NCBI GenBank assembly: GCA_965202985.1
Contig: CBDBCF010000001.1
Location: 1,696,001-1,760,000, forward strand
Origin: Longimicrobiales bacterium
GTDB lineage: Bacteria > Gemmatimonadota > Gemmatimonadetes > Longimicrobiales > Gaopeijiaceae
Direction of reading: 5' to 3'
Length of the DNA: 64,000 bases
The first letter of the stretch is position 1; every line of letters begins with the position of its first letter. This document shows, one piece after another, positions 48,214 to 60,595 of this stretch. The position numbers and the translations under genes are program-made. Below the pieces are notes generated by a model that was not told where the DNA came from, did no database searches, and saw only the letters and a list, made by a program, of their open reading frames with translations.

Positions 48214-48858
48214 ATGACCGAGAGCCAAAACCTGGAACGGAAGAGGTCTTGGCGCGACGAGCATCTGAGGCGGATATGCGGTTTCGCGAACGCACACGGC
48301 GGTGTGCTGGAAGTCGGGAGGGACGATCGGGGCAAGGTCGTGGGCGTGAAGGACATTGCCCGACTCCTGGAGGAGATCCCCAACAAGGCTCGGTCGTCGT
48401 TGGGCATCATCGTGGACGTGAACCTCAAGTCCAAGGACGGCATCGAGTACCTGCAGATCGTGGTTGGTCCTTACCCGAATCCGATCAGCTACAAGGGAGA
48501 GTTCCACTACCGGAGCGGATCAACGAAACAGGTGCTTCACGGCGCCGCCTTGAGCCGATTCCTAATACGGAAGCAACAAACTGTCCAGGCTACCCAAGAA
48601 ACTACCCAAGAACCGGCTGAGACTACCCAAGAAACTGCCCAAGAACCGGCCCGGACTACCCAAGAACCGGCGCCGACCACGCGGGAGCGAATCCTGGCGC
48701 TCCTCGAAGCCGAACCGCGCATCACGCGACGCATCCTGGCCGAGCGCATCGGCATCACGCCGAGTGGCATCAAGTACCATTTGGCCAAGCTGCGGAAGGC
48801 CGGGATCATCCGGCACGTTGGTCCGACGAAGGCTGGACGCTGGGAGGTCCTGAAGTGA
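48214..48858 (+). CDS. AlbA_2 (Schlafen-like) domain plus winged HTH, short form
   Basis: ESQNLERK, FANAHGG and YRSGST; TQE repeats; C-terminal HTH ending GRWEV. Confidence 0.75.
   Translation: MTESQNLERKRSWRDEHLRRICGFANAHGGVLEVGRDDRGKVVGVKDIARLLEEIPNKARSSLGIIVDVNLKSKDGIEYLQIVVGPYPNPISYKGEFHYRSGSTKQVLHGAALSRFLIRKQQTVQATQETTQEPAETTQETAQEPARTTQEPAPTTRERILALLEAEPRITRRILAERIGITPSGIKYHLAKLRKAGIIRHVGPTKAGRWEVLK
48589..48672 (+). repeat. In-frame ACTACCCAAGAA-type repeats
   Basis: Five TQE/AQE units. Confidence 0.8.
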
Positions 48859-48925
48859 CCGCAGCCAGCCAACGGTTGCGGACGACTCGACAGAGAGGGA
48901 CGATCCGCCGCCGACGGACGCCCCG

Positions 48926-49560
48926 GTGATCGAGAGACGCCTCCGGAGCCTCTGGGATCGTGTCCTGGCCAAGAGGGCCGACGTGTCCCACTTCTTGACC
49001 CAGGTTCGACTGCAAGGCATTCGGGGAATCGACGACTTGGCCGTGGGATTCATCTCGCCGGTCGTCGCAATTGCCGGCGGCAACGCCAGCGGCAAATCCA
49101 CGCTCCTGGCCGCGATTGCCTGCGCGTATCGAGTGCCCGGAGCACGCCACGGAGACTTTCTGCCGACCACGCTGTTCGCGGACTATCGGCCCAGGCGAGG
49201 AACCTACAGGGATGTCCGGGGACCCGCTGCCATCGAGTTCGAGTATTCGACTCCGAACGGGGGACGGGCCATGCGGTGGCGGCGCACCAGTGGTTGGCGG
49301 CAGACGTTCTACGGACGGCGGAGCGCGTCCCAGCCCGAGCGGCCCGTCCACGTGCACGTGACGAGGAACCTCGACGACCCGGCGGAGGTTCGCGACTCGG
49401 TCGCGGGCATTACGCGGGGACGTTCTGTGACGAAGGAGAGACCTTTGACGCTCTGGGAGATGCACTTTGCCGAGAAGATGTTGCCGTTCAAGTACTCGGA
49501 AGTGACCAACCTTGCGCGAGACGGCCACAGCCTGCTGTTCGCCCGGCAGAAGGGGGGCGC
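48926..49560 (+). pseudogene. Truncated paralogue of the 33634-35190 ATPase
   Basis: Collinear (IAGGNASGKST, EYSTP, QPERPV) up to FARQKGGA, then broken before Walker B. Confidence 0.85.
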
Positions 49561-49800
49561 ACCAGCGTCGACTCGTGCGGGTTCGCAGGATGCGTGCTCA
49601 ACGACAGCGGAAGCCCGCAGCGGTCCACGATCGCCATGATCTTCACGTCCTTGCCCGCCTTGGTGATCCCCACGCCCGCGCCGCCGCCCTTCGCCCGCGC
49701 GAACGACGCGTCGACGTACGCCTCCGAGCCGTCGAACAGCCCCCGCTGCTTCGCTTCGCCCGCCAAGTCCTCGAGCACCGCGTCGAGCACGCCCGTCCGT
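49559..49800 (-). mobile_element. IS5-family transposase internal fragment
   Basis: [13 protein letters not shown]...[13 protein letters not shown]...ANPHESTL. Confidence 0.8.
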
Positions 49801-49973: not shown

Positions 49974-51716
49974 TTATCCGGCATGATCGAAGAGATCTAT
50001 GGATTTCTTGTTGGTCAGCACATCCGCCCTTTTTAAATCCCCAGCCACTTGCCCAGCGTAAACGGTTTTTCCCGCCCACTCAAACAGCTTCCCGACCCGT
50101 CGCACCGCTTCGTCCGTCCTGCTCCAGAGCCTTCCGTGTCGAGCTTCGTCAATCATCGTCCGCACGGTTAGGACGGCTTCGGCCCGCCTCCTGTCGTTCA
50201 CCCACCACGGGTAGGGCATACGCTCAAAGTCCTTGCTTTGAATATTTCTTGTGTGGTTGATCACCGTCTTCAGGATCCGATTCGCCGTATCCGAAAGTAG
50301 CCACCCTAGAATAAAATACAGTTCTTCCCGATCTTCACCCTGTCGCAAGAAGGCACACGGTGCTCCACTATCGAGAATATATCCGGCCGGCAAGTAGCGG
50401 GGTACAAACTGTGTTGCCACAAGTTGCCAAGTAAGGCCCTTTTGTCCAAAAAAACGTTGTCCTCCGACACCTCGCAGATACCAGTTGCTCGTCCGCTTGT
50501 ATGTCAACACGGCATCTCCTTCGTCTCGCCAATAGATATAATGCGTCGGATCTGAATACACAATTCGCCCGTTTGCCTTGTTGTACGGTGCATATCGCGA
50601 ATCTGGCAGTGCGACGACCTCTGGATTGTCGCGATGTACAACGCGCACTCGACGCTCTGTTTCTCCTGCCATCTCGGCCGCCTTGAGTGCTGCTTCACGT
50701 CGGACAGACAGCCGCCCGAGTCTAGCACGCTCCAATTCGTGCTTTAGCGTCACTGGCGCTTGGTAGAATTCAAATGCAAATGGCTCTTGAATTTGTTGTC
50801 CTGGACGCACCCTCCGAACGAACAATGCATTATTGCCCGTCGTCATGCCACTTGTTGCGATGAACCGATCGCCCAGTAATGGACCGTCGAAGAAATGAGC
50901 GGTCTCGACATCAACGCCCCACGACAGATTAGGTGTAGCGAGGATCGCCTTCCTATCGATCACTTTCGCATTGCGCACAACTCGGTGGCTATCTTCATTC
51001 TTGATGAAGTCAAGCACCAGCATTGGATAGCTAGTTTCGGCGGAGAATTCAGCGATGTTGGTTAGTTTTACTTTACCCCTCTTCATCAGGAAGTTACGAA
51101 GGCCTGCCATCGTCGGAATCGTGAGCAATGTGTCACTGCAAATGAATGTCAGTCGTCCACCCGGTCGCAGTAAGTCCACGCATGCCACAATGAAAAACGC
51201 GTATGTTTCCTTCTTGATCTTCATTCCAAGACGCTTGCCAAGACGTTTATCCAGTATGTCTTCAATATCGCGATGGAAAGTGCCTCCGAATGGAGGATTT
51301 CCGATCACAAGATCGAAGCTTCCGTGATCAAATCCTATCGTGTCGTTGTGAATGTCGTTACACATACCCGCTAGATACGCCCTAAAGAAGTCGCTATTGC
51401 AGATTCGTGTTTTCACTTCTATTGTATCGTCATTACGGTTAACGGCCGTTGCCAGGGCGCTTTGTGCGAGGCGCCCGTCCACCTCGACACCAATCAATTC
51501 CCATGTTTCGTCAACTCGGTCTCCAGAAAAACAGCTGGCATCCAATCGATCAACAATAGCGGACAAGAAAGCACCGTCACCGCATGATGGCTCCAAGATG
51601 CGCTTGTACATGTCGAGTGGTACTGCGTCGATCACTTGAGTCGCTAGTGAGGACGGTGTCATGTATTGTCCTCGTTGTCTCTTGTTCACTCTTTCATGCT
51701 TTCGTTGTCTGATCAC
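49974..51716 (-). CDS. N6-adenine DNA MTase (gamma class)
   Basis: GQYMTP, LEPSCGDG and IGNPPF; low GC. Confidence 0.9.
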   Translation of the reverse strand: MIRQRKHERVNKRQRGQYMTPSSLATQVIDAVPLDMYKRILEPSCGDGAFLSAIVDRLDASCFSGDRVDETWELIGVEVDGRLAQSALATAVNRNDDTIEVKTRICNSDFFRAYLAGMCNDIHNDTIGFDHGSFDLVIGNPPFGGTFHRDIEDILDKRLGKRLGMKIKKETYAFFIVACVDLLRPGGRLTFICSDTLLTIPTMAGLRNFLMKRGKVKLTNIAEFSAETSYPMLVLDFIKNEDSHRVVRNAKVIDRKAILATPNLSWGVDVETAHFFDGPLLGDRFIATSGMTTGNNALFVRRVRPGQQIQEPFAFEFYQAPVTLKHELERARLGRLSVRREAALKAAEMAGETERRVRVVHRDNPEVVALPDSRYAPYNKANGRIVYSDPTHYIYWRDEGDAVLTYKRTSNWYLRGVGGQRFFGQKGLTWQLVATQFVPRYLPAGYILDSGAPCAFLRQGEDREELYFILGWLLSDTANRILKTVINHTRNIQSKDFERMPYPWWVNDRRRAEAVLTVRTMIDEARHGRLWSRTDEAVRRVGKLFEWAGKTVYAGQVAGDLKRADVLTNKKSIDLFDHAG

Positions 51717-52411
51717 GGAACAAACTCCATGTCACTCTGGTCTACGGCAAAATCGGTGCCACGGAATCTCTGCAACTGGCTCCGCCGTTGTTGTAGGCGT
51801 TTCTGGCGATTGGCAAATAAGTCGTGAAGTTTTTGTTCAAACAGCCCAAAGAGAACTTCGGCTTTTTCCGGTACACCTCGCTTTGCTGGCCTGTATCCAG
51901 AATCGATAGCAGCATAGAAATCACGCTCGCGGAGCATAATCTGGCCAGGACCAGCATCATATGTGACGAATTCTGTCCAATCGAGCAAATCGACGAAATA
52001 TGAAAGATGCGTATGGTTGGACATGTCGAATTTGATGATGAGCAAGTAATAAGAATCTATCCATTGTCGTAGAATATAGTCAAGCAGTTTCTGCATGGAC
52101 ACGAGATTGGGTTGGCCGTTCATGTTCTGAAGGCCAGACTTAACGTTTATTGGATTGTATATGCCATTACAATAGACCCAGGTGTCGCCCATGGAACGCT
52201 TTCTGATTTCGCCTTTCTTGGTGCCTTCGTAGCGGGTATCCAAGTGTACCTTCAGAAGCGCTGTAGTCCGATCGTCAACGTAGTCGGCCATGCGATGCCC
52301 CGGCTCCTTGCCCGACACGATTTCGGCGAAGCTCTGATCTCGCACATGGACAGACCAATGGTCGTTGGTAAGGTTGATGATCTGTGATTGGACACATGCA
52401 GTGATGGCCAT
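51713..52411 (-). CDS. Putative Type II restriction endonuclease
   Basis: SMGD...INVK PD-(D/E)xK-like motif; GTGA overlap with the MTase; low GC. Confidence 0.65.
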   Translation of the reverse strand: MAITACVQSQIINLTNDHWSVHVRDQSFAEIVSGKEPGHRMADYVDDRTTALLKVHLDTRYEGTKKGEIRKRSMGDTWVYCNGIYNPINVKSGLQNMNGQPNLVSMQKLLDYILRQWIDSYYLLIIKFDMSNHTHLSYFVDLLDWTEFVTYDAGPGQIMLRERDFYAAIDSGYRPAKRGVPEKAEVLFGLFEQKLHDLFANRQKRLQQRRSQLQRFRGTDFAVDQSDMEFVP

Positions 52412-53229: not shown

Positions 53230-54792
53230 TCAAGAAGCTGCAAGCATCCGCAAGCGCTTTCCCTCGGTTTCGGCGTCTTCCGCGTCCATGAAGGCGTGGC
53301 ACCTCTCGAGTTCGCGGCGCGTCTCGTCCAGCGAGTGCCACTGAACCTGGGCCGTCCATCGCCATAGGTAGTCCATCGCTTGGATGAGCGGTTCCGGGCG
53401 TCCCGTCCGCGACAAGGCTCGGAGCGCCGCGACGTAGTTGGCGCGGAAGACCGTGGGCACCAGGATGCGGTGTTCGCCGCGGGCCACCAGCTCGGCGTTC
53501 ATCATGACGCGGGCCACACGTCCGTTGCCGTCCGCGAAGGGGTGGACCTCGGTCACGAGGAACATCGCGAAGACGGCGCACTGGAAGGGCGTCTCCAAGC
53601 TCCGCCAATGTCCGAAGCCCTGCTCCAGCGTGCCGCGCACCAGGGCGGGGTCCACGAACACCGTCGTGCCCGCTCGGTTGGGCATGGACTTGAACTCGCC
53701 GGGTCGCGTGTCGGCGCGCCCGCCCATGATCGTTCGGTGGCGGGACTTGAGCAGTGCTTCAAGGTCGCGAAAGCTGTCCGGCGTCCGGGCCATCTCGGCG
53801 TCGTCCGAGACCAAGCGCCAAGTGCCCGCCACGTCGTGGGCGTCTGCTGGCCGTTCCGTCGGGACGTTGCCGTCGAAGACGATGCCGGCGGCTTCTTCGA
53901 CGGTGAACTCGGTGCCTTCGATGAAGTTCGAGAAGTATGCATCGAAGAAGGCCAGCGTCTTGCTGCCCACGGAGTCGCGGGGTGGCGCGGGGACGGTTCG
54001 CGGCGGGTAGTCGCGGAGAGCGCGATGCAGCGTCTCGAAGAGGGCGACCCGGCCGGCGTCGAACGGGCGACCTTGCCCGCGTGCCCGGGCCGCGGGGGAG
54101 GCGAGTCGGGTCGACCGGGTTCCCAGGAGCGCGCCGATCACGTCGTCCAGCGTCGCCGCTTCGTCGTGCATGTCCAAGGACGCCGCCGCGATCCGTACTT
54201 CGTCGCGCAGCCGATTGGCCGCGGCTTCGCCCGACAACGAAATCACGGCGTCTAGGCGTTCTTCGATCTCGCTTCGCGACAGGGTTCGCGGGACGCGCCC
54301 GCCTCGTGCCCGGCTGGGCCGCATGTTCTCCAAGAACGCCCGCGCCCGCGAGCTTAGGTGAAGGTCGGTCATGAACGGCTGGTCCAGTTCGATCGGCCCC
54401 ACGCCTCGCCGGGGACGGAGGAGGACTCCGGGCAGCTCGATCTCGCGCCCCCGTGCAGCGACGATGCAGACCGAGCCGTCCGGGGCGGGACCGATTTCGA
54501 ACGCCGTGCGGTCGGCAACCACTGCGCCTGGGAAGTATCCAGCGACGATCTCCCAGAGGTTCCGTCGCACCACGACTTCGACCGGGTCGACCAGGTTCTT
54601 GGTGTAGAGGCGGGAGCCGATCTTTCGCAGCTTGCCGGCCCTCACGGCCCGCGAGACGGCGCGGCTGATCGCCGTGGTGGACACGAACGCCTCGGGCGCG
54701 GCGGCTAGCGCGAAGGCGGCCGTGGCGGGTGTCGGGGAGGCCGGTGCTTGGTTGCTGGCCCTGGGCGACCGGTCGGCGGGAATTTTGGCCAT
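53230..54792 (-). CDS. Fic family protein (long form)
   Basis: YFSNFIEGT and HPFADGNGRVAR motifs. Confidence 0.92.
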   Translation of the reverse strand: MAKIPADRSPRASNQAPASPTPATAAFALAAAPEAFVSTTAISRAVSRAVRAGKLRKIGSRLYTKNLVDPVEVVVRRNLWEIVAGYFPGAVVADRTAFEIGPAPDGSVCIVAARGREIELPGVLLRPRRGVGPIELDQPFMTDLHLSSRARAFLENMRPSRARGGRVPRTLSRSEIEERLDAVISLSGEAAANRLRDEVRIAAASLDMHDEAATLDDVIGALLGTRSTRLASPAARARGQGRPFDAGRVALFETLHRALRDYPPRTVPAPPRDSVGSKTLAFFDAYFSNFIEGTEFTVEEAAGIVFDGNVPTERPADAHDVAGTWRLVSDDAEMARTPDSFRDLEALLKSRHRTIMGGRADTRPGEFKSMPNRAGTTVFVDPALVRGTLEQGFGHWRSLETPFQCAVFAMFLVTEVHPFADGNGRVARVMMNAELVARGEHRILVPTVFRANYVAALRALSRTGRPEPLIQAMDYLWRWTAQVQWHSLDETRRELERCHAFMDAEDAETEGKRLRMLAAS

Positions 54793-55628: not shown

Positions 55629-56498
55629 CTAGCCCATCAGCTCATCCAAGGACGTGTACTCGAAGGAGCGGCGCAGGCCCAGGCGGGCAAACTGAACGGC
55701 AAGCTCCTTCACTTGGGTCTTGGTCAGCTTGCCGGTGTTGGCCCAGCGGCGATGCAACCGGGTCACGACCGCGGCCCGCGCGCGAGGATGATTGACGACC
55801 GTGATGCGTCGAAGCGAGAGCATGACCAGCTCCTCCCACGCCGGATGGTTTGCGCGCAGCGTTTCGTGAGCCTCGACGCGATCAACCCGACCTTCCGCGA
55901 CCTGCTCGATTCGAAGCGCCAATTGCCAGCGCCACCAGGCCTGGGCCATCGGACAGTCGGAGAAGACGGACACCTTGCCTCGGACGAAGATGCCGCCGGT
56001 TCGTCGCAAGAGGTTGCGGGTTCGCGCTTCCGAGTCCTTGGCGGGAGAGCCCTCCGTCATAAGCGCAGCGCGGACCGAATGTCCGGAATCGCCCAGACGA
56101 CTCTGCTCGATCCACGCGACGTGGCAGAGGAGCCAAAACACGGGCTGGGACGCCAGCCGGGGAGGCAAGTTCCGCCAAGTCCTGCCGAGCTCCACCTCAA
56201 GCTCGAAGGGTGGCTTGACAAACTCGGCGGGCGTAAGGCGGTCGCGCGGAAACGAAGGGGCATCGATCTCGTCGCCCACGCCCAGCCCCAGGACGCGACG
56301 AAGGTAGGCTCCCAGCTGCCTAGGTCCCTTGTCGATCTCGGATGCCAGTTCCTCTTGCCGACCTCTGACCTTCTCGACGGTCGCTCGGTTGTGGCGTGCA
56401 GGCTTTCCGTGCTTCCTTTGGTCGAAGACGATGTCACGCTGCCAGCTGCTGAAGGCGGTGCCGCACTTGTCGACCAGTCGGTCAATCTTCTTCGTCAT
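55629..56498 (-). CDS. Hypothetical protein, DUF6339-like
   Basis: LPPRLASQPVFWLLCH...AQAWW resembles the DUF6339 pattern as recalled; overlaps the upstream gene. Confidence 0.55.
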   Translation of the reverse strand: MTKKIDRLVDKCGTAFSSWQRDIVFDQRKHGKPARHNRATVEKVRGRQEELASEIDKGPRQLGAYLRRVLGLGVGDEIDAPSFPRDRLTPAEFVKPPFELEVELGRTWRNLPPRLASQPVFWLLCHVAWIEQSRLGDSGHSVRAALMTEGSPAKDSEARTRNLLRRTGGIFVRGKVSVFSDCPMAQAWWRWQLALRIEQVAEGRVDRVEAHETLRANHPAWEELVMLSLRRITVVNHPRARAAVVTRLHRRWANTGKLTKTQVKELAVQFARLGLRRSFEYTSLDELMG

Positions 56499-57324
56499 TG
56501 TCTTCCCTGGAATCGGCGAAGAAGAAGGGCTCCAGAAGCGTGGCCACCAAGGCCGGGTCGTAGTTCTCGTCGTCCCACAGCGCCACGTTTTCTCTCTTCT
56601 GCCGCAGTCGATTCCCGAGTTCGCGAGCCAGCGGCTCTTCATCGCGTGCATCGCTGGTGCCGGATTCCGACCGCGACTCTGAGAGCGCACCCCCGAACAC
56701 GCGAGGAAACCAGCCGCATACTCCCACCAGAGCCGCCACTTGCAAGGTCCTGTCCGACTTTGCCTGCTTGAAGACGTCCGGCGCCATCTTCACCGTGAAC
56801 CGCAAGCGTCCGCCGCCGTAGTCGGGGCCCACCTCCATGGTGCCCTTGTCCATGTCGTCGTTGCGCCGAAACGTGACCAGCGACTCGGTCAGCGTCTTGG
56901 AGCGGCACGCTTGCCCCTTGGCCAGCCACCAACCTGCCGGAACGCGAAGTTCGTCGGCGTCCGCCCACAGCGAGGTCAGCCCCGTTCCGTCGAGCGAGAA
57001 GGGCATCCGCGCGATCAGCCCGGGCACGATGTAGACCATGTCGTCCACTTCGTCGGGAGCCCACGAGACCACTTGTGGGTCGTCGGTCGAAGTCGAAGTC
57101 TCCACGCGGGCCATGAGAGTCTTGGGGCACCGCAGCTCGACGGCCCAGGCCGCCGTTCCGTCTTCGATCAGCTTGTGCAGAGCCGGCGCCCCGATCAGCC
57201 GGTGCCGCACCGTTGCGCTGTTGCGGCCCACCGACACTTCGGGAGCATAACTCGCGTCCAACCAGTCGTACCGCGACCCGTCTTCCAGAAGGATCGGGAG
57301 AGGCGTCTGCTCGATGGTGTTCAC
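56482..57324 (-). CDS. Hypothetical protein
   Basis: GTGA overlap with the upstream ATPase; WAVELRCPKT; 280 aa. Confidence 0.7.
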   Translation of the reverse strand: MNTIEQTPLPILLEDGSRYDWLDASYAPEVSVGRNSATVRHRLIGAPALHKLIEDGTAAWAVELRCPKTLMARVETSTSTDDPQVVSWAPDEVDDMVYIVPGLIARMPFSLDGTGLTSLWADADELRVPAGWWLAKGQACRSKTLTESLVTFRRNDDMDKGTMEVGPDYGGGRLRFTVKMAPDVFKQAKSDRTLQVAALVGVCGWFPRVFGGALSESRSESGTSDARDEEPLARELGNRLRQKRENVALWDDENYDPALVATLLEPFFFADSREDNDEED

Positions 57325-59204
57325 GAATCGCTGCGTCGGCGGCGCACGATGTCCACCTCGACGGCGTTCGGGTCGGCAAGCCCCTTGTCGAGCACGACGA
57401 CAAACCGGCGAGCGGTATTGGGCAGGGCCACTTCGAACGGGTTGTCCTTGGGTGGATGCGTCGTGCCGTCCTCGAAGCGAACCTCGCGAATGGGGACCCA
57501 CTCGGGCCCCAGAGGCTGCTCGCAGGTCTGGTCGGAGCCGGACGGCACCCTGACGCGGACACCCAACAAGTCCGCCGACGGAAGATCGCCCCGAGGGTCC
57601 CATTCGACCTTCACGGCATCAACGGTTCCTGCCCCGTTCCGCGATGCCCGGTACGCCAGCCGGCCCGAAACGGCTCTGCCCTGCCGCGGCGCAGCCCCCT
57701 GCCTGCGCTTCTTCTTTCGCATGCCCCGCCTCCGGCGTGCGTCCACGCCCTCTTCTTCCTTGTCGCTTCGATCCATCACGGTGGCACCGTTCTCGCTGGC
57801 GCCCCCTCGCGGACGGTAGCTGGGCACCTTCTCCGCCTTCTTCTCCCGGTTGCCGGAAAGCGGGACGAAGCCCTCGGGCGTGAACTCGTCGTCGGCTTCC
57901 TCTTCGCCGGCCTGCTGCCGCAGCTCGGTCGCGATCTTCTTGAGTCGGGCCAGCAGCTCCGCGCTGTCTTGTCGCGAGAGGCGACTTCGCTCCAGATGGC
58001 GGTGCTCCGGGCCTTCGGCGTCTCGGACCAGCTCCGCCAACCTGCCGTCGGCCACCATGACGACCGCGGCGAAGGGCTTGAAGGTTCTGAAGTGTCGGGG
58101 CTCCAACGCGTCGGCGCTGTTTGTGATCCACATGCCGTTCCGGAAGACCTGGACGCGCGACTCCGGCCTGCCCTTGCGGGCCTCCAGCGTCCGAATGCGG
58201 ACCGGCGTGCCGTCCCGCAGCTCGAAAGGCACGCCGTCTCTCAACGTCTGCCACGCTTGGTAGGCCTGGGCGCCCGGGAGCCAGCGGCCCGTCTGGGCGC
58301 CGCGCTTCTTTCCCTTCTCCTGTTCGAGGATCTTTCCCAGCGTGTTGCGCGTCACGGCGGTCTCGCACCCGCTTTCGTCGCGCACGCGCACGACCATCTT
58401 TCCTTCCCAGATCGCGACCAGGAAGTTCTTGGCCGCGACTTGGGCGATCGCCTGCACCGGATCGGCCTCACTCCGAAAGTTGTTGAACCCGGTGATGCAC
58501 ACGACGCTTCCCGTGTCGGTCAGCCGGTCCAGCTCCTCTTGCAGCAGGGGCGGCGCTCGGTCCGGATAGGGCGACTGATGGAAGAGCGTGGCTTCCTCCC
58601 CGTGCAGCCAGAAGCCGTCGCCCCCGAGACCGCCTTCGCCGTTGCGGAGCGCGCGGGAGGCCAGGATCGCATGACCGCTCGCAATGTCGTGCAACTCGCC
58701 GCCGTCGTCTCCCCATCGGCCAGCGTAGAGCACGTACCGCAGGTCCGAACCCGCGAACGCCGTCAAGTGACCAATGCCGAACGCGCCGGCCCCGCCCTCG
58801 TCTTTGCTGGTGTTTCCTTGCGTCAGGATGCGCCGCATCCGGTCGGGATCGAGTCCCACGCCGTTGTCCCGGCACACGAGCAAGCGGACGGTTTCCTTGT
58901 CCAGGATCCGCCGGATGCGATCGATGACCCTCTTCTCGGCTCTGCCCTGGGTCTCCGCCTGGCGCTGGGCTACGGCTTCGTCGAAGTGATTGCGGTACGA
59001 TTCGATCCCCGGCACTTGGTCGAGCGGAACTTGGCGGATGTCAAAATCCACCTCCGCCTGTTCGACATCGATCTCGTCGGCGGCGTCCAGACAGTTCTGA
59101 AGGAGTTCGCGGACGATCGGCTCCGGCTTGCCGTCCCACTGAGTCGTGGTAAGGGTCGAGAATCCTTGGGGTTGGCCGGACTGGAATACGAGATCGTCTT
59201 GCAT
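57321..59204 (-). CDS. GHKL/HATPase-fold ATPase with an uncharacterised C-terminus
   Basis: RELLQNCLDA, DNGVG, GAFGIG and TGSVV (N, G1, G2, G3 boxes). Confidence 0.85.
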   Translation of the reverse strand: MQDDLVFQSGQPQGFSTLTTTQWDGKPEPIVRELLQNCLDAADEIDVEQAEVDFDIRQVPLDQVPGIESYRNHFDEAVAQRQAETQGRAEKRVIDRIRRILDKETVRLLVCRDNGVGLDPDRMRRILTQGNTSKDEGGAGAFGIGHLTAFAGSDLRYVLYAGRWGDDGGELHDIASGHAILASRALRNGEGGLGGDGFWLHGEEATLFHQSPYPDRAPPLLQEELDRLTDTGSVVCITGFNNFRSEADPVQAIAQVAAKNFLVAIWEGKMVVRVRDESGCETAVTRNTLGKILEQEKGKKRGAQTGRWLPGAQAYQAWQTLRDGVPFELRDGTPVRIRTLEARKGRPESRVQVFRNGMWITNSADALEPRHFRTFKPFAAVVMVADGRLAELVRDAEGPEHRHLERSRLSRQDSAELLARLKKIATELRQQAGEEEADDEFTPEGFVPLSGNREKKAEKVPSYRPRGGASENGATVMDRSDKEEEGVDARRRRGMRKKKRRQGAAPRQGRAVSGRLAYRASRNGAGTVDAVKVEWDPRGDLPSADLLGVRVRVPSGSDQTCEQPLGPEWVPIREVRFEDGTTHPPKDNPFEVALPNTARRFVVVLDKGLADPNAVEVDIVRRRRSDS

Positions 59205-59232
59205 GGTGTGCGCGTGCGCGGGTCCTTGTCCT

Positions 59233-60595
59233 TTAGTCGGTGCAGTCGCAGGCGGGCGTGCCGACGGCGTACCGGCCCAGGTCGGGCGCGGCGCCGGCTG
59301 CGATTTCGGCGAAGGTGGGGCCGCTCAGGCCGAAGAAGCCGAAGCTGGCCGTGCCGTCGCCGTCGCGGGCGGCCACCTGTCTGCGGTAGCGCTCCTCCAT
59401 CCGGCTCCACCAGGCGATGTCCGACGGTGCGCCGGCTTCCCGGTCGGGGTCGGGCCGGGCCGCCGCGGCCGCCAGCGACCGAGTGCCCTTCATGAAGCAG
59501 AAAACGCAGTTGCCCGCGTGCTCCGGGATGCGGAGGTCGAAGTCGCGTCCCAGCCAGAAGCGGCGGACGCCCGCGGCGTCGATGCCCCACTCCGCCAGCG
59601 GGAAGATCGGATGCTCGCCCGGCGGCTGGGTATGGATGGAGCAGGATGTGCTGGCCCCTTCGGCGAAGACCGAGCGGGACTCGATCTTGTCGATGCGCTT
59701 CTGCTCGTCGGCTCGAAGGCCCAGCAGCGTGACGTGGCCGGCGTGGGCGGGTCCCCACATCGGCGCGGGACCCGGAGGACGGTCGACAGCGTCGAGGCGC
59801 TCCCCGGGCACCGGCATCGGCGCGTCCGTGTAGTCGCTCCAACGCTGGGCTGGGCGCGCCGGCGGGCGTTCCGTCATGCAGCGCACCCGTTGCCGGTACA
59901 CGTCGGCAGGCGCCGCGCCCCGGTTGCGACGGTACTGAACCAGAGCCTTCTGCGGCGTCACGAACCGTCGTCGTCCCCAGTGGCCGGCGTGGGCGGGGCC
60001 GTCGGTGACGCCCAGCCACTCGGCCAGAAGCTCGTGCGACGGATACAGCTTGAGTTTGGCCGTGCACGAGCGGCTGTGGGGGTTGGGCAGCATCCCCTGG
60101 TAGGAGAGCATCTCCTCGAAGACCTCGCCTCGGGAGCGAAAGCCCCGGGGATCGTCCTCCACGGGCTCGGGCAGAACCAGCCGGTACGAGGGGCGCCGGA
60201 CGTACACGCCCCGCGAGGCGTCCTCCACCGTGCAGAACTCGAACCAGAAGAACGGGATGCCGAAGTCGCGCTCCAGGCGCCGCTTGCACTGTCGCGCGAA
60301 GTCGTAGGTGGCCGGGTGCTCCGCAGACGTGTTGGCGAAGAGGATTGCGTCGCCGCGCTCGGGCCGAAGCAGCCCCGATTCGGCCAGCAGGAACGCTAGT
60401 GCGGCCGAGGACCTTCCGCCGGAGAACTTGACGATGTGCGGAAGGCGTTCGTGCTCCTTGGCGCGAGCGGCGATCTCGCGGGCGCCGACCTCCCTGGGGG
60501 CGGGAGCTGTGCTACCGGACTGCGGCCGTCCGATTAGGGTCGGAAGACGACCTCCCGAAATTTTCGGGGGGGGGGGGGGGGGCGGGAAAGGGCAT
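59233..60595 (-). CDS. PAPS-reductase-like (adenine nucleotide alpha hydrolase) Fe-S protein; start codon out of frame across a poly-C tract
   Basis: The frame stays open upstream of the track ORF: KFSGGRSS, FANTSAEH, RSCTAKLK, GLRADE, GNCVFCFMK, C-terminal CDC. Confidence 0.82.
60566..60582. repeat. G17/C17 homopolymer
   Basis: 17 consecutive G on the + strand. Confidence 0.9.

Follow-up and report, generated by a model that had tools for sequence, protein, structure and literature searches.

An SspD-like enzyme paired with a GHKL ATPase in Gemmatimonadota: a probable, apparently undescribed sulfur DNA-marking variant

Four systems for DNA phosphorothioation are established, and they are described as requiring a P-loop NTPase (PMC12914056; this and the other papers cited were accessible in part, and statements about them refer to those parts). 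The CxC-ABC systems offer a precedent for a swap between phosphorothioate and a cytosine methylase (PMC10853773), and no GHKL or MORC protein appears in the accessible main text of that paper. An ExxxH motif in a GHKL protein with an S5 domain characterises the paraMORC2 ATPases that occur in restriction-modification operons (Iyer et al. 2008, PMC2292703), for which the main text, in its accessible part, does not mention PAPS, PP-loop or Dnd partners. PDC-M33 belongs to a set of 145 phage defence candidates called untested, and is not named in the accessible main text (Payne et al., bioRxiv 10.1101/2024.01.29.577857). Here we describe a four-gene cassette of a Longimicrobiales bacterium, located in a stretch of 64,000 nucleotides (contig CBDBCF010000001.1, positions 1,696,001 to 1,760,000; referred to as the window), which joins an SspD-like enzyme (gene 1) to a GHKL ATPase and two further proteins (genes 2-4, the trio). 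The cassette is real and conserved, apparently undescribed, and probably a GHKL-driven variant of the sulfur DNA-marking systems. It is not described in the accessible parts of PMC12839542, PMC8011034 and PMC12137116, and a literature search that covered few subscription papers found no description of it.

The four genes are co-oriented on the minus strand and tightly packed; their spacing (a 28-bp gap, then a 4-bp GTGA overlap, then a 17-bp overlap) was re-measured and agrees with the initial annotation. The features of the cassette are:

59233..60595, minus strand: gene 1, SspD-like PP-loop/PAPS-reductase-fold enzyme, about 453 amino acids (aa) if read from the ATG (PADLOC, PHROG, hhalign)
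60566..60582, minus strand: C17 tract (G17 on the plus strand), 13 nt into the reading from the ATG at 60595
60406..60423, minus strand: PP-loop SGGRSS of gene 1
60064..60096, minus strand: GMLPNPHSRSC loop of gene 1, ending in C177
57321..59204, minus strand: gene 2, 627-aa GHKL+S5 ATPase, PDC-M33A-like (PADLOC, motifs)
56482..57324, minus strand: gene 3, 280-aa PDC-M33B-like protein (PADLOC, structure model)
55629..56498, minus strand: gene 4, 289-aa all-helical DUF6339-like protein in the PDC-M33C position (hhalign, model)

As initially annotated, gene 1 carries a PP-loop (SGGRSS, aa 58-63 of P0001) and cysteine motifs, namely RxC (C177), CxxC (C363/C366) and a C-terminal CxC (C449/C451), and all five cysteines are invariant across 48 aligned homologues. 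The match to PADLOC SspD is partial (E 4.4e-11); aligned by hhalign with a true SspD (one that scores 1.3e-109 in PADLOC), gene 1 reaches 97.6% over 174 columns, with the whole core aligned. A DndC-type P-x4-R-x-C loop and the CxxC are retained. The loop GMLPNPHSRSC, which varies by sub-clade with NPHS, NQFS and SMVS as forms, has the same spacing as GYPAPTRSFRW-C146, the predicted specificity loop of DndC (PMC12193691). By sequence, the best family match is PHROG 424, phage PAPS-reductase-like proteins (E 5.9e-28), which share the SGGR, P-x-R-x-C, G-x-R-x-DE and NCxxC motifs but have a median length of 261 aa, largely lack the inserts predicted to bind gene 4, and had the trio or a desulfurase in 0/81 loci. 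Among solved structures, a sequence search gave no match to gene 1. Gene 1 is a putative 4Fe-4S sulfur-inserting DNA writer. Going by record names, gene 1 homologues come from Acidimicrobiales, from a Bathymodiolus gill symbiont, from Ca. Zeuxoniibacter and from an alphaproteobacterium; gene 1 of the L028 clade was not found in the plasmid set. The phage proteins themselves are widespread (L131-L210), lie among Nin-type genes and have a C5 methylase nearby in 10/81 loci.

With SspABCD and BREX type 4 the cassette has in common an SspD-like PP-loop enzyme, an SspA-like desulfurase, an ATPase and a helical partner, and with BREX-4 a PAPS-fold enzyme in place of the methylase. It differs from both in having a GHKL ATPase instead of SspB/DUF4007, the SspC/BrxC P-loop ATPase and SspE, and in the two inserts and the C-terminal CxC of gene 1, which the aligned SspD core does not cover. 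PADLOC gave no SspB or SspC match for genes 2-4, and from the BREX type 4 set (brxP, brxC, pglZ, brxL) only a BrxP fragment was matched (E 0.029), the others being absent from the four genes and their recurrent neighbours. A DndA-like desulfurase, the DndC-type loop and a three-cysteine pattern recall Dnd; on the other hand, gene 1 matches no DndC model and lacks the DndC cysteine dyad before the CxxC, and the cassette has no DndB/D/E (DndE was not searched separately). Genes of PbeABCD adjoin three loci. The cassette would work like an Ssp or BREX-4 system, yet it falls outside Ssp, Dnd and BREX-4.

Gene 2 shows the full set of GHKL boxes given in the initial annotation (RELLQNCLDA, DNGVG and GAFGIGH, all intact) together with the catalytic Glu33, although its Pfam HATPase_c score lies under the cut-off and solved structures gave weak GHKL matches only in a sequence search. 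The paraMORC2 ExxxH motif is present in its S5 domain (E397/H401) and in 60/60 GHKL rows, an assignment set by motif definition. Sister loci with Dcm and Vsr add to the likeness with paraMORC2, from which the cassette differs in that its core lacks an SF2 helicase and a RE-fold nuclease. Contrary to the first view that no named system matched, PADLOC places the trio as a divergent clade of candidate PDC-M33, going by profile matches: the order is the same, with A the GHKL protein (PDC-M33A, E 6.9e-33, aa 28-458), B weak and C DUF6339-like. Typical members score 1e-71 to 1e-99 for A and 1e-39 to 1e-61 for B, whereas the cassette has no PDC-M33C match, and the trio is joined by an SspD-like enzyme, in some loci also by a desulfurase, rather than by Dcm plus Vsr. 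A cysteine in the GHKL tail (DxTC) was considered as a sulfur relay and rejected as essential, being missing in L023/L026 and in the L024/L028/L029/L032/L034 sub-clades. A third, distant ExxxH-type GHKL is encoded at L106:7803-9791 (G000:C1:2746802-2748790) and also at L108 and L109, with two different downstream partners of about 270 and 370 aa without family match, and neither gene 1 nor Dcm near.

Relatives of the cassette come from metagenome-assembled genomes of Gemmatimonadota. The four-gene order is kept in 8/9 related genome loci, the ninth consisting of gene 1 and a truncated gene 2. Across 401 Gemmatimonadota genomes, all full or split gene 1 loci (18/18, in 14 genomes) adjoin a GHKL gene, and all GHKL matches at E<1e-150 (18/18) adjoin gene 1, a one-to-one pairing; a 56-position fragment and a phage-type match were set aside, and the first look was a strict one, hence these counts are a floor. 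The genes travel together, as the initial annotation had suggested checking.

For a quick GHKL tree, matches of at least 1100 nt were kept, short-flank loci (L061-L090) and an overlapping one (L097) were excluded, and 3/63 rows were dropped as duplicates. On this tree 42 GHKL rows share one branch (Shimodaira-Hasegawa-like approximate likelihood ratio test, 98). Clade counts refer to the 41 loci besides the window, and the comparison is with the other 18 tree rows. Gene 1 is present at 38/41 clade loci, a cysteine desulfurase at 13/41 and Dcm at 0/41; among the other, more distant rows there are 13 with Dcm, eight with Vsr, 11 with DUF6339 and none with gene 1. Gene 1 occupies the slot that holds a cytosine methylase in the sister loci. 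Three clade rows lack gene 1. One is L034, where the contig begins 178 nt upstream. The remaining two are trios on L014, of which one ends at the contig edge and the other is a real local absence; they are divergently transcribed and belong to different sub-clades. Further copies are interrupted (L098, L100, L101, L104, L003, L007), by a gap of about 1.7 kb in gene 1 in L098 and elsewhere by stop codons or a shifted frame in gene 1 or gene 2, which points either to frequent decay or to errors of assembly. In L012, L028, L039 and L053, from both clades, a gene of 70-85 aa precedes the GHKL gene or gene 1 and is possibly a regulator.

Several neighbours point to sulfur. The same genome holds a second copy (L013; G000:C1 about 1953665-1959780), with a gene 1 that is 39% identical, a GC content of 0.56 vs 0.69, and, between gene 1 and the GHKL gene, a desulfurase of IscS type; about 3 kb beyond this copy, on the other side of an insertion sequence remnant, there is a GmrSD_N gene. 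Intact five-gene copies that include a desulfurase are seen in L013, L020 and L099. Operon desulfurases have the catalytic-cysteine motif and sit tightly between gene 1 and the GHKL gene in 9 measured loci. No desulfurase is found within the window's copy of the operon, and other class-V desulfurase-like genes occur elsewhere in the genome. The phosphorothioated-DNA-binding endonuclease NF045808 (HNH) is matched above cut-off near 2/41 clade loci, PbeA (3e-154) near 3/41, with PbeC in L101, and GmrSD_N proteins near 9/41, compared with 0/18 others in each case. In another genome (G247, L213:5268-6197), a lone gene 4 homologue (3e-71) is located directly upstream of a complete sspABCD operon. 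When SspB and SspC of that operon were used as tblastn queries, no match was obtained in the 92%-complete genome of the window, which also has no DndD (TIGR03185) above cut-off. The reading of gene 1 as a DNA modifier of phosphorothioate type, made at the outset, gains support from its SspD-like sequence, the desulfurase at 13/41 loci and its place in the Dcm slot.

Gene 3 matches PDC-M33B at E 0.027 in this copy and at 3.2e-10 in its paralogue in the same genome, and one profile finds both clades. Its model (predicted local distance difference test, pLDDT, 88) has an N-terminal Ig/FN3-like beta-sandwich and an alpha/beta C-terminal domain, and gene 3 is a probable adaptor. Gene 4 itself has no Pfam match and no PADLOC PDC-M33C match. 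Its paralogue in this genome scores 23.0 bits against DUF6339 (cut-off 23.2), and hhalign of family to family gives 68% (E 4.7e-5), compared with 1.6% against one single sequence. The label "DUF6339-like", given before, is therefore fair but weak: it stands as remote family homology, not as a direct Pfam match. The gene 4 model is all-helical, and its conserved Arg/Trp motifs suggest DNA binding; one cysteine is conserved in 89% and missing from the DUF6339 rows displayed. Foldseek gave no match at E<=0.001 for either model. The best fold Z scores were 5.7 for gene 4 (C-terminal helices only) and 6.8 for gene 3 (FN3-like N-terminal domain), from searches that barely covered the C-terminal half of gene 3 and the N-terminal part of gene 4. 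The ESM Atlas gave no usable match to gene 4, and longer, fused forms of gene 4 did not turn up when sought, which is weak evidence. Fusions of gene 3 to gene 4 occur in L211, L212 and, in part, L096, and gene 4 is duplicated in L093, L095 and L096, as would be expected for a reading or specificity unit. The fusions at L211:6914-8560 and L212:6288-8021 stand alone, each beside a Fic-looking open reading frame (by eye), with no GHKL gene or gene 1 near; G256 is without any gene 1 match.

In a four-chain model (gene 1, gene 4, the gene 2 tail and the gene 3 head), gene 1 is predicted to bind gene 4. The interaction prediction score from aligned errors (ipSAE) is 0.85, that of the best control 0.41; in the calibration the mark was reached by 116/157 solved pairs and 2/215 mismatched pairs, counts that hold roughly, the four-chain job and its custom alignments differing from the calibration. 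The runs share at least 97% of contacts, with a partner pLDDT of at least 81. Gene 4 (residues 85-100) makes all the confident contacts, which on gene 1 involve segments 81-87 and 158-167 (alignment A2 numbering). Against SspD these segments align to gaps, and their occupancy among phage relatives is low, a figure that comes from trimmed local alignments and has relative value only. Interface residues are kept in gene 1 (D81 46/48, G160 48/48, H161 48/48) and in gene 4 (E92 31/35, P97 32/35). The proposed division into a modifier and a three-gene reader or effector is therefore too clean, since the model docks gene 4 directly on gene 1.

The gene 1 start given in the initial annotation has to be revised. 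From the ATG at 60595 to the gene 1 stop there are 1363 nt (remainder 1), so that this ATG is not in frame, and the G17 run at 60566-60582 lies in between. No other in-frame ATG, GTG or TTG is present before the PP-loop, the first listed being a GTG at 60228. In the window, L001, L002, L009 and L094, an out-of-frame ATG is followed by a run of 15-20 C; L096 has G11 after an in-frame ATG, and L095 has G13 with no ATG found upstream. Most loci lack any run of at least 8. The presence of tracts in this position in relatives suggests phase variation, and the whole genome contains only 26 C/G runs of at least 14. Among the 19 run regions fetched, several lie in or beside C5 methylase, DUF1156 methylase, glycosyltransferase and SGNH protein genes, others beside unrelated genes. 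Contigs across the tract are shorter overall, by 1 base in run X7 and by 4 bases in run X2, with gap positions not placed at the tract; if these bases were lost inside it, gene 1 would be in frame in both. A phase-variation switch of gene 1, currently OFF, is the likelier reading of the tract, and a homopolymer error in sequencing or assembly the less likely one. This copy of the cassette seems to be switched off by the C tract. As a side observation, the long G/C homopolymers at DUF1156 methylase, C5 methylase, SGNH and glycosyltransferase genes of the same genome (L111, L112, L114, L116, L118, L120) possibly form a set of phase-variable loci in a sponge symbiont.

From these data we infer a mobile restriction-modification-like system in which sulfur, most likely as a DNA phosphorothioate, serves as the self mark and a GHKL motor replaces the P-loop NTPase (probability about 0.5). 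Sulfur would come from a desulfurase of IscS type, either the operon's own, as in one sub-clade, or one borrowed from housekeeping. The PP-loop of gene 1 and ATP would activate a DNA phosphate, and a cysteine-held 4Fe-4S cluster would insert the sulfur, as proposed for DndC and SspD. The two inserts absent from SspD would dock gene 1 on gene 4, which with gene 3 would make up a DNA-reading head. The GHKL ATPase may be a clamp, gated by ATP, for looping or scanning DNA; in Dnd, Ssp and BREX-4 this task falls to the P-loop NTPase. Unmarked DNA would then be acted on by the trio, either unaided or together with neighbouring nucleases of GmrSD, PbeA or HNH type, the sister loci would follow the same scheme with 5-methylcytosine (Dcm plus Vsr), and the 5' poly-C tract would turn the writer on and off in some lineages.

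A number of observations weigh against this reading. According to PMC12914056, phosphorothioate systems known so far depend on a P-loop NTPase, and the cassette has none. The best family match of gene 1 is to phage proteins of about 260 aa and of unknown product, no DndC model matches and SspD does so partially. The operon desulfurases score 369-400 bits against DndA (cut-off 480) and could serve only Fe-S assembly, and 28/41 clade loci have none. No nuclease motif was identified in genes 2-4, and no nuclease fold for genes 3 or 4; nuclease neighbours are found at a minority of loci, and defence islands cluster anyway. One trio has no gene 1 within its 8.9-kb contig (L014), and the gene 3-4 fusions of L211 and L212 have none nearby. 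The Dcm/gene 1 swap is one tree event, so that the clade counts are not independent, and the profiles used for them were built from the same loci. Finally, the departure of the complex model from its calibration counts here too, and the mean conservation of the gene 1 interface (0.61) is not higher than background (0.62).

These points leave room for other explanations. Gene 1 might mark DNA off the backbone, as a thio-base (by TtcA/TtuA-like chemistry) or another ATP-dependent adduct, a capacity inherited from the phage PAPS-reductase-like family; its nearest families are from phages (PHROG 424, Atlas clusters 55-71% viral, 163 viral loci), the same slot otherwise holds a cytosine base methylase, and a PP-loop enzyme with a desulfurase makes RNA thio-bases too, as in ThiI, MnmA and TtcA (PMC12914056). 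We consider this unlikely, given the phosphorothioate-specific neighbours NF045808, PbeA and sspABCD, and given that the characterised PAPS-fold DNA modifiers named in the literature examined are all phosphorothioate writers. Alternatively, gene 1 could modify a protein (e.g. gene 4) or make a small signal, with the desulfurase building its Fe-S cluster and the trio being a defence effector. QueC-like PP-loop enzymes in QatABCD and type IV CBASS are a precedent, and the predicted tight contact with gene 4, the conserved gene 4 cysteine and the optional desulfurase would fit. However, the modelled contact is on peripheral inserts of gene 1, away from the PP-loop and the cysteines, and the mutual exclusion with Dcm plus Vsr indicates a DNA mark, which makes this explanation rather improbable.

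About as doubtful is a system in which the four genes do no more than write the mark (as DndCDE does), with restriction, if any, coming from separate nucleases, and with a main role that is perhaps epigenetic and phase-variable, not anti-phage. The missing nuclease folds in genes 3 and 4, the GmrSD, PbeA and HNH genes adjoining some loci, and the resemblance of the 5' tract to those at the C5 methylase and DUF1156 methylase of the same genome speak for it. The trio, on the other hand, stays with Dcm although Dcm needs no helper, and in L010 it is embedded among type I and MmeI genes without a modifier of its own; from both it follows that the trio is probably more than a writer's helper. A metabolic role for gene 1 as a reductase of CysH type, or its presence beside the trio by chance, for which a weak match to Pfam PAPS_reduct could be cited (PF01507, 17 bits vs a cut-off of 22.5), is hardly credible. 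Linkage is 18/18 in the phylum sample, gene 1 ends in CDCTD instead of the ECGLH of metabolic CysH, and the two cassette copies are the sole PF01507 matches in the genome. Taking the restriction-modification-like and the writer-only readings together, phosphorothioate as the mark is somewhat better than an even bet.

Surveys for such systems require a PAPS-fold gene together with a P-loop NTPase (PMC12914056), so that a GHKL-driven writer would be missed by design. Should phosphorothioate be the mark, candidate PDC-M33 and DUF6339 would gain a function, and the ATP-driven motor would be of a type not yet reported for sulfur DNA tagging. Comparison of the methyl and sulfur versions of one chassis would tell what bacterial paraMORC ATPases do, and a phosphorothioate writer under phase variation would offer an on/off tool made by nature. 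In its furthest form, for which the odds fall a little short of even, the proposal is that of a fifth machine for DNA phosphorothioation, in addition to Dnd, Ssp, Tdp and BREX-4. It would consist of an SspD-like enzyme of phage origin, docked to a DUF6339-like reader, and of a MORC/MutL-type GHKL clamp as its motor, without P-loop NTPase, swappable with cytosine methylation and giving a homopolymer-switched, phase-variable sulfur epigenome in sponge or marine symbionts.

At the cassette no promoter consensus was found, terminators were at chance level and no tRNA was found at the locus. The Fic and restriction-modification genes noted initially were recovered by Pfam, both downstream:

53230..54792, minus strand: Fic-domain protein, neighbour outside the module (Pfam Fic, E 3.5e-12)
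51713-52411, minus strand: 232-aa open reading frame upstream of the N6-adenine methylase, no family match, low GC
49974-51716, minus strand: N6-adenine methylase, neighbour, low GC (Pfam Eco57I, E 7e-14)

The Fic gene is absent from the neighbour clusters common to several loci. At 48214-49639 of the window, where the defence island has its border, lie an AlbA_2/HTH protein and a truncated AAA ATPase interrupted by a short open reading frame resembling a transposase remnant. Of the public sequencing runs, the four with the best match are all sponge metagenomes from one study.

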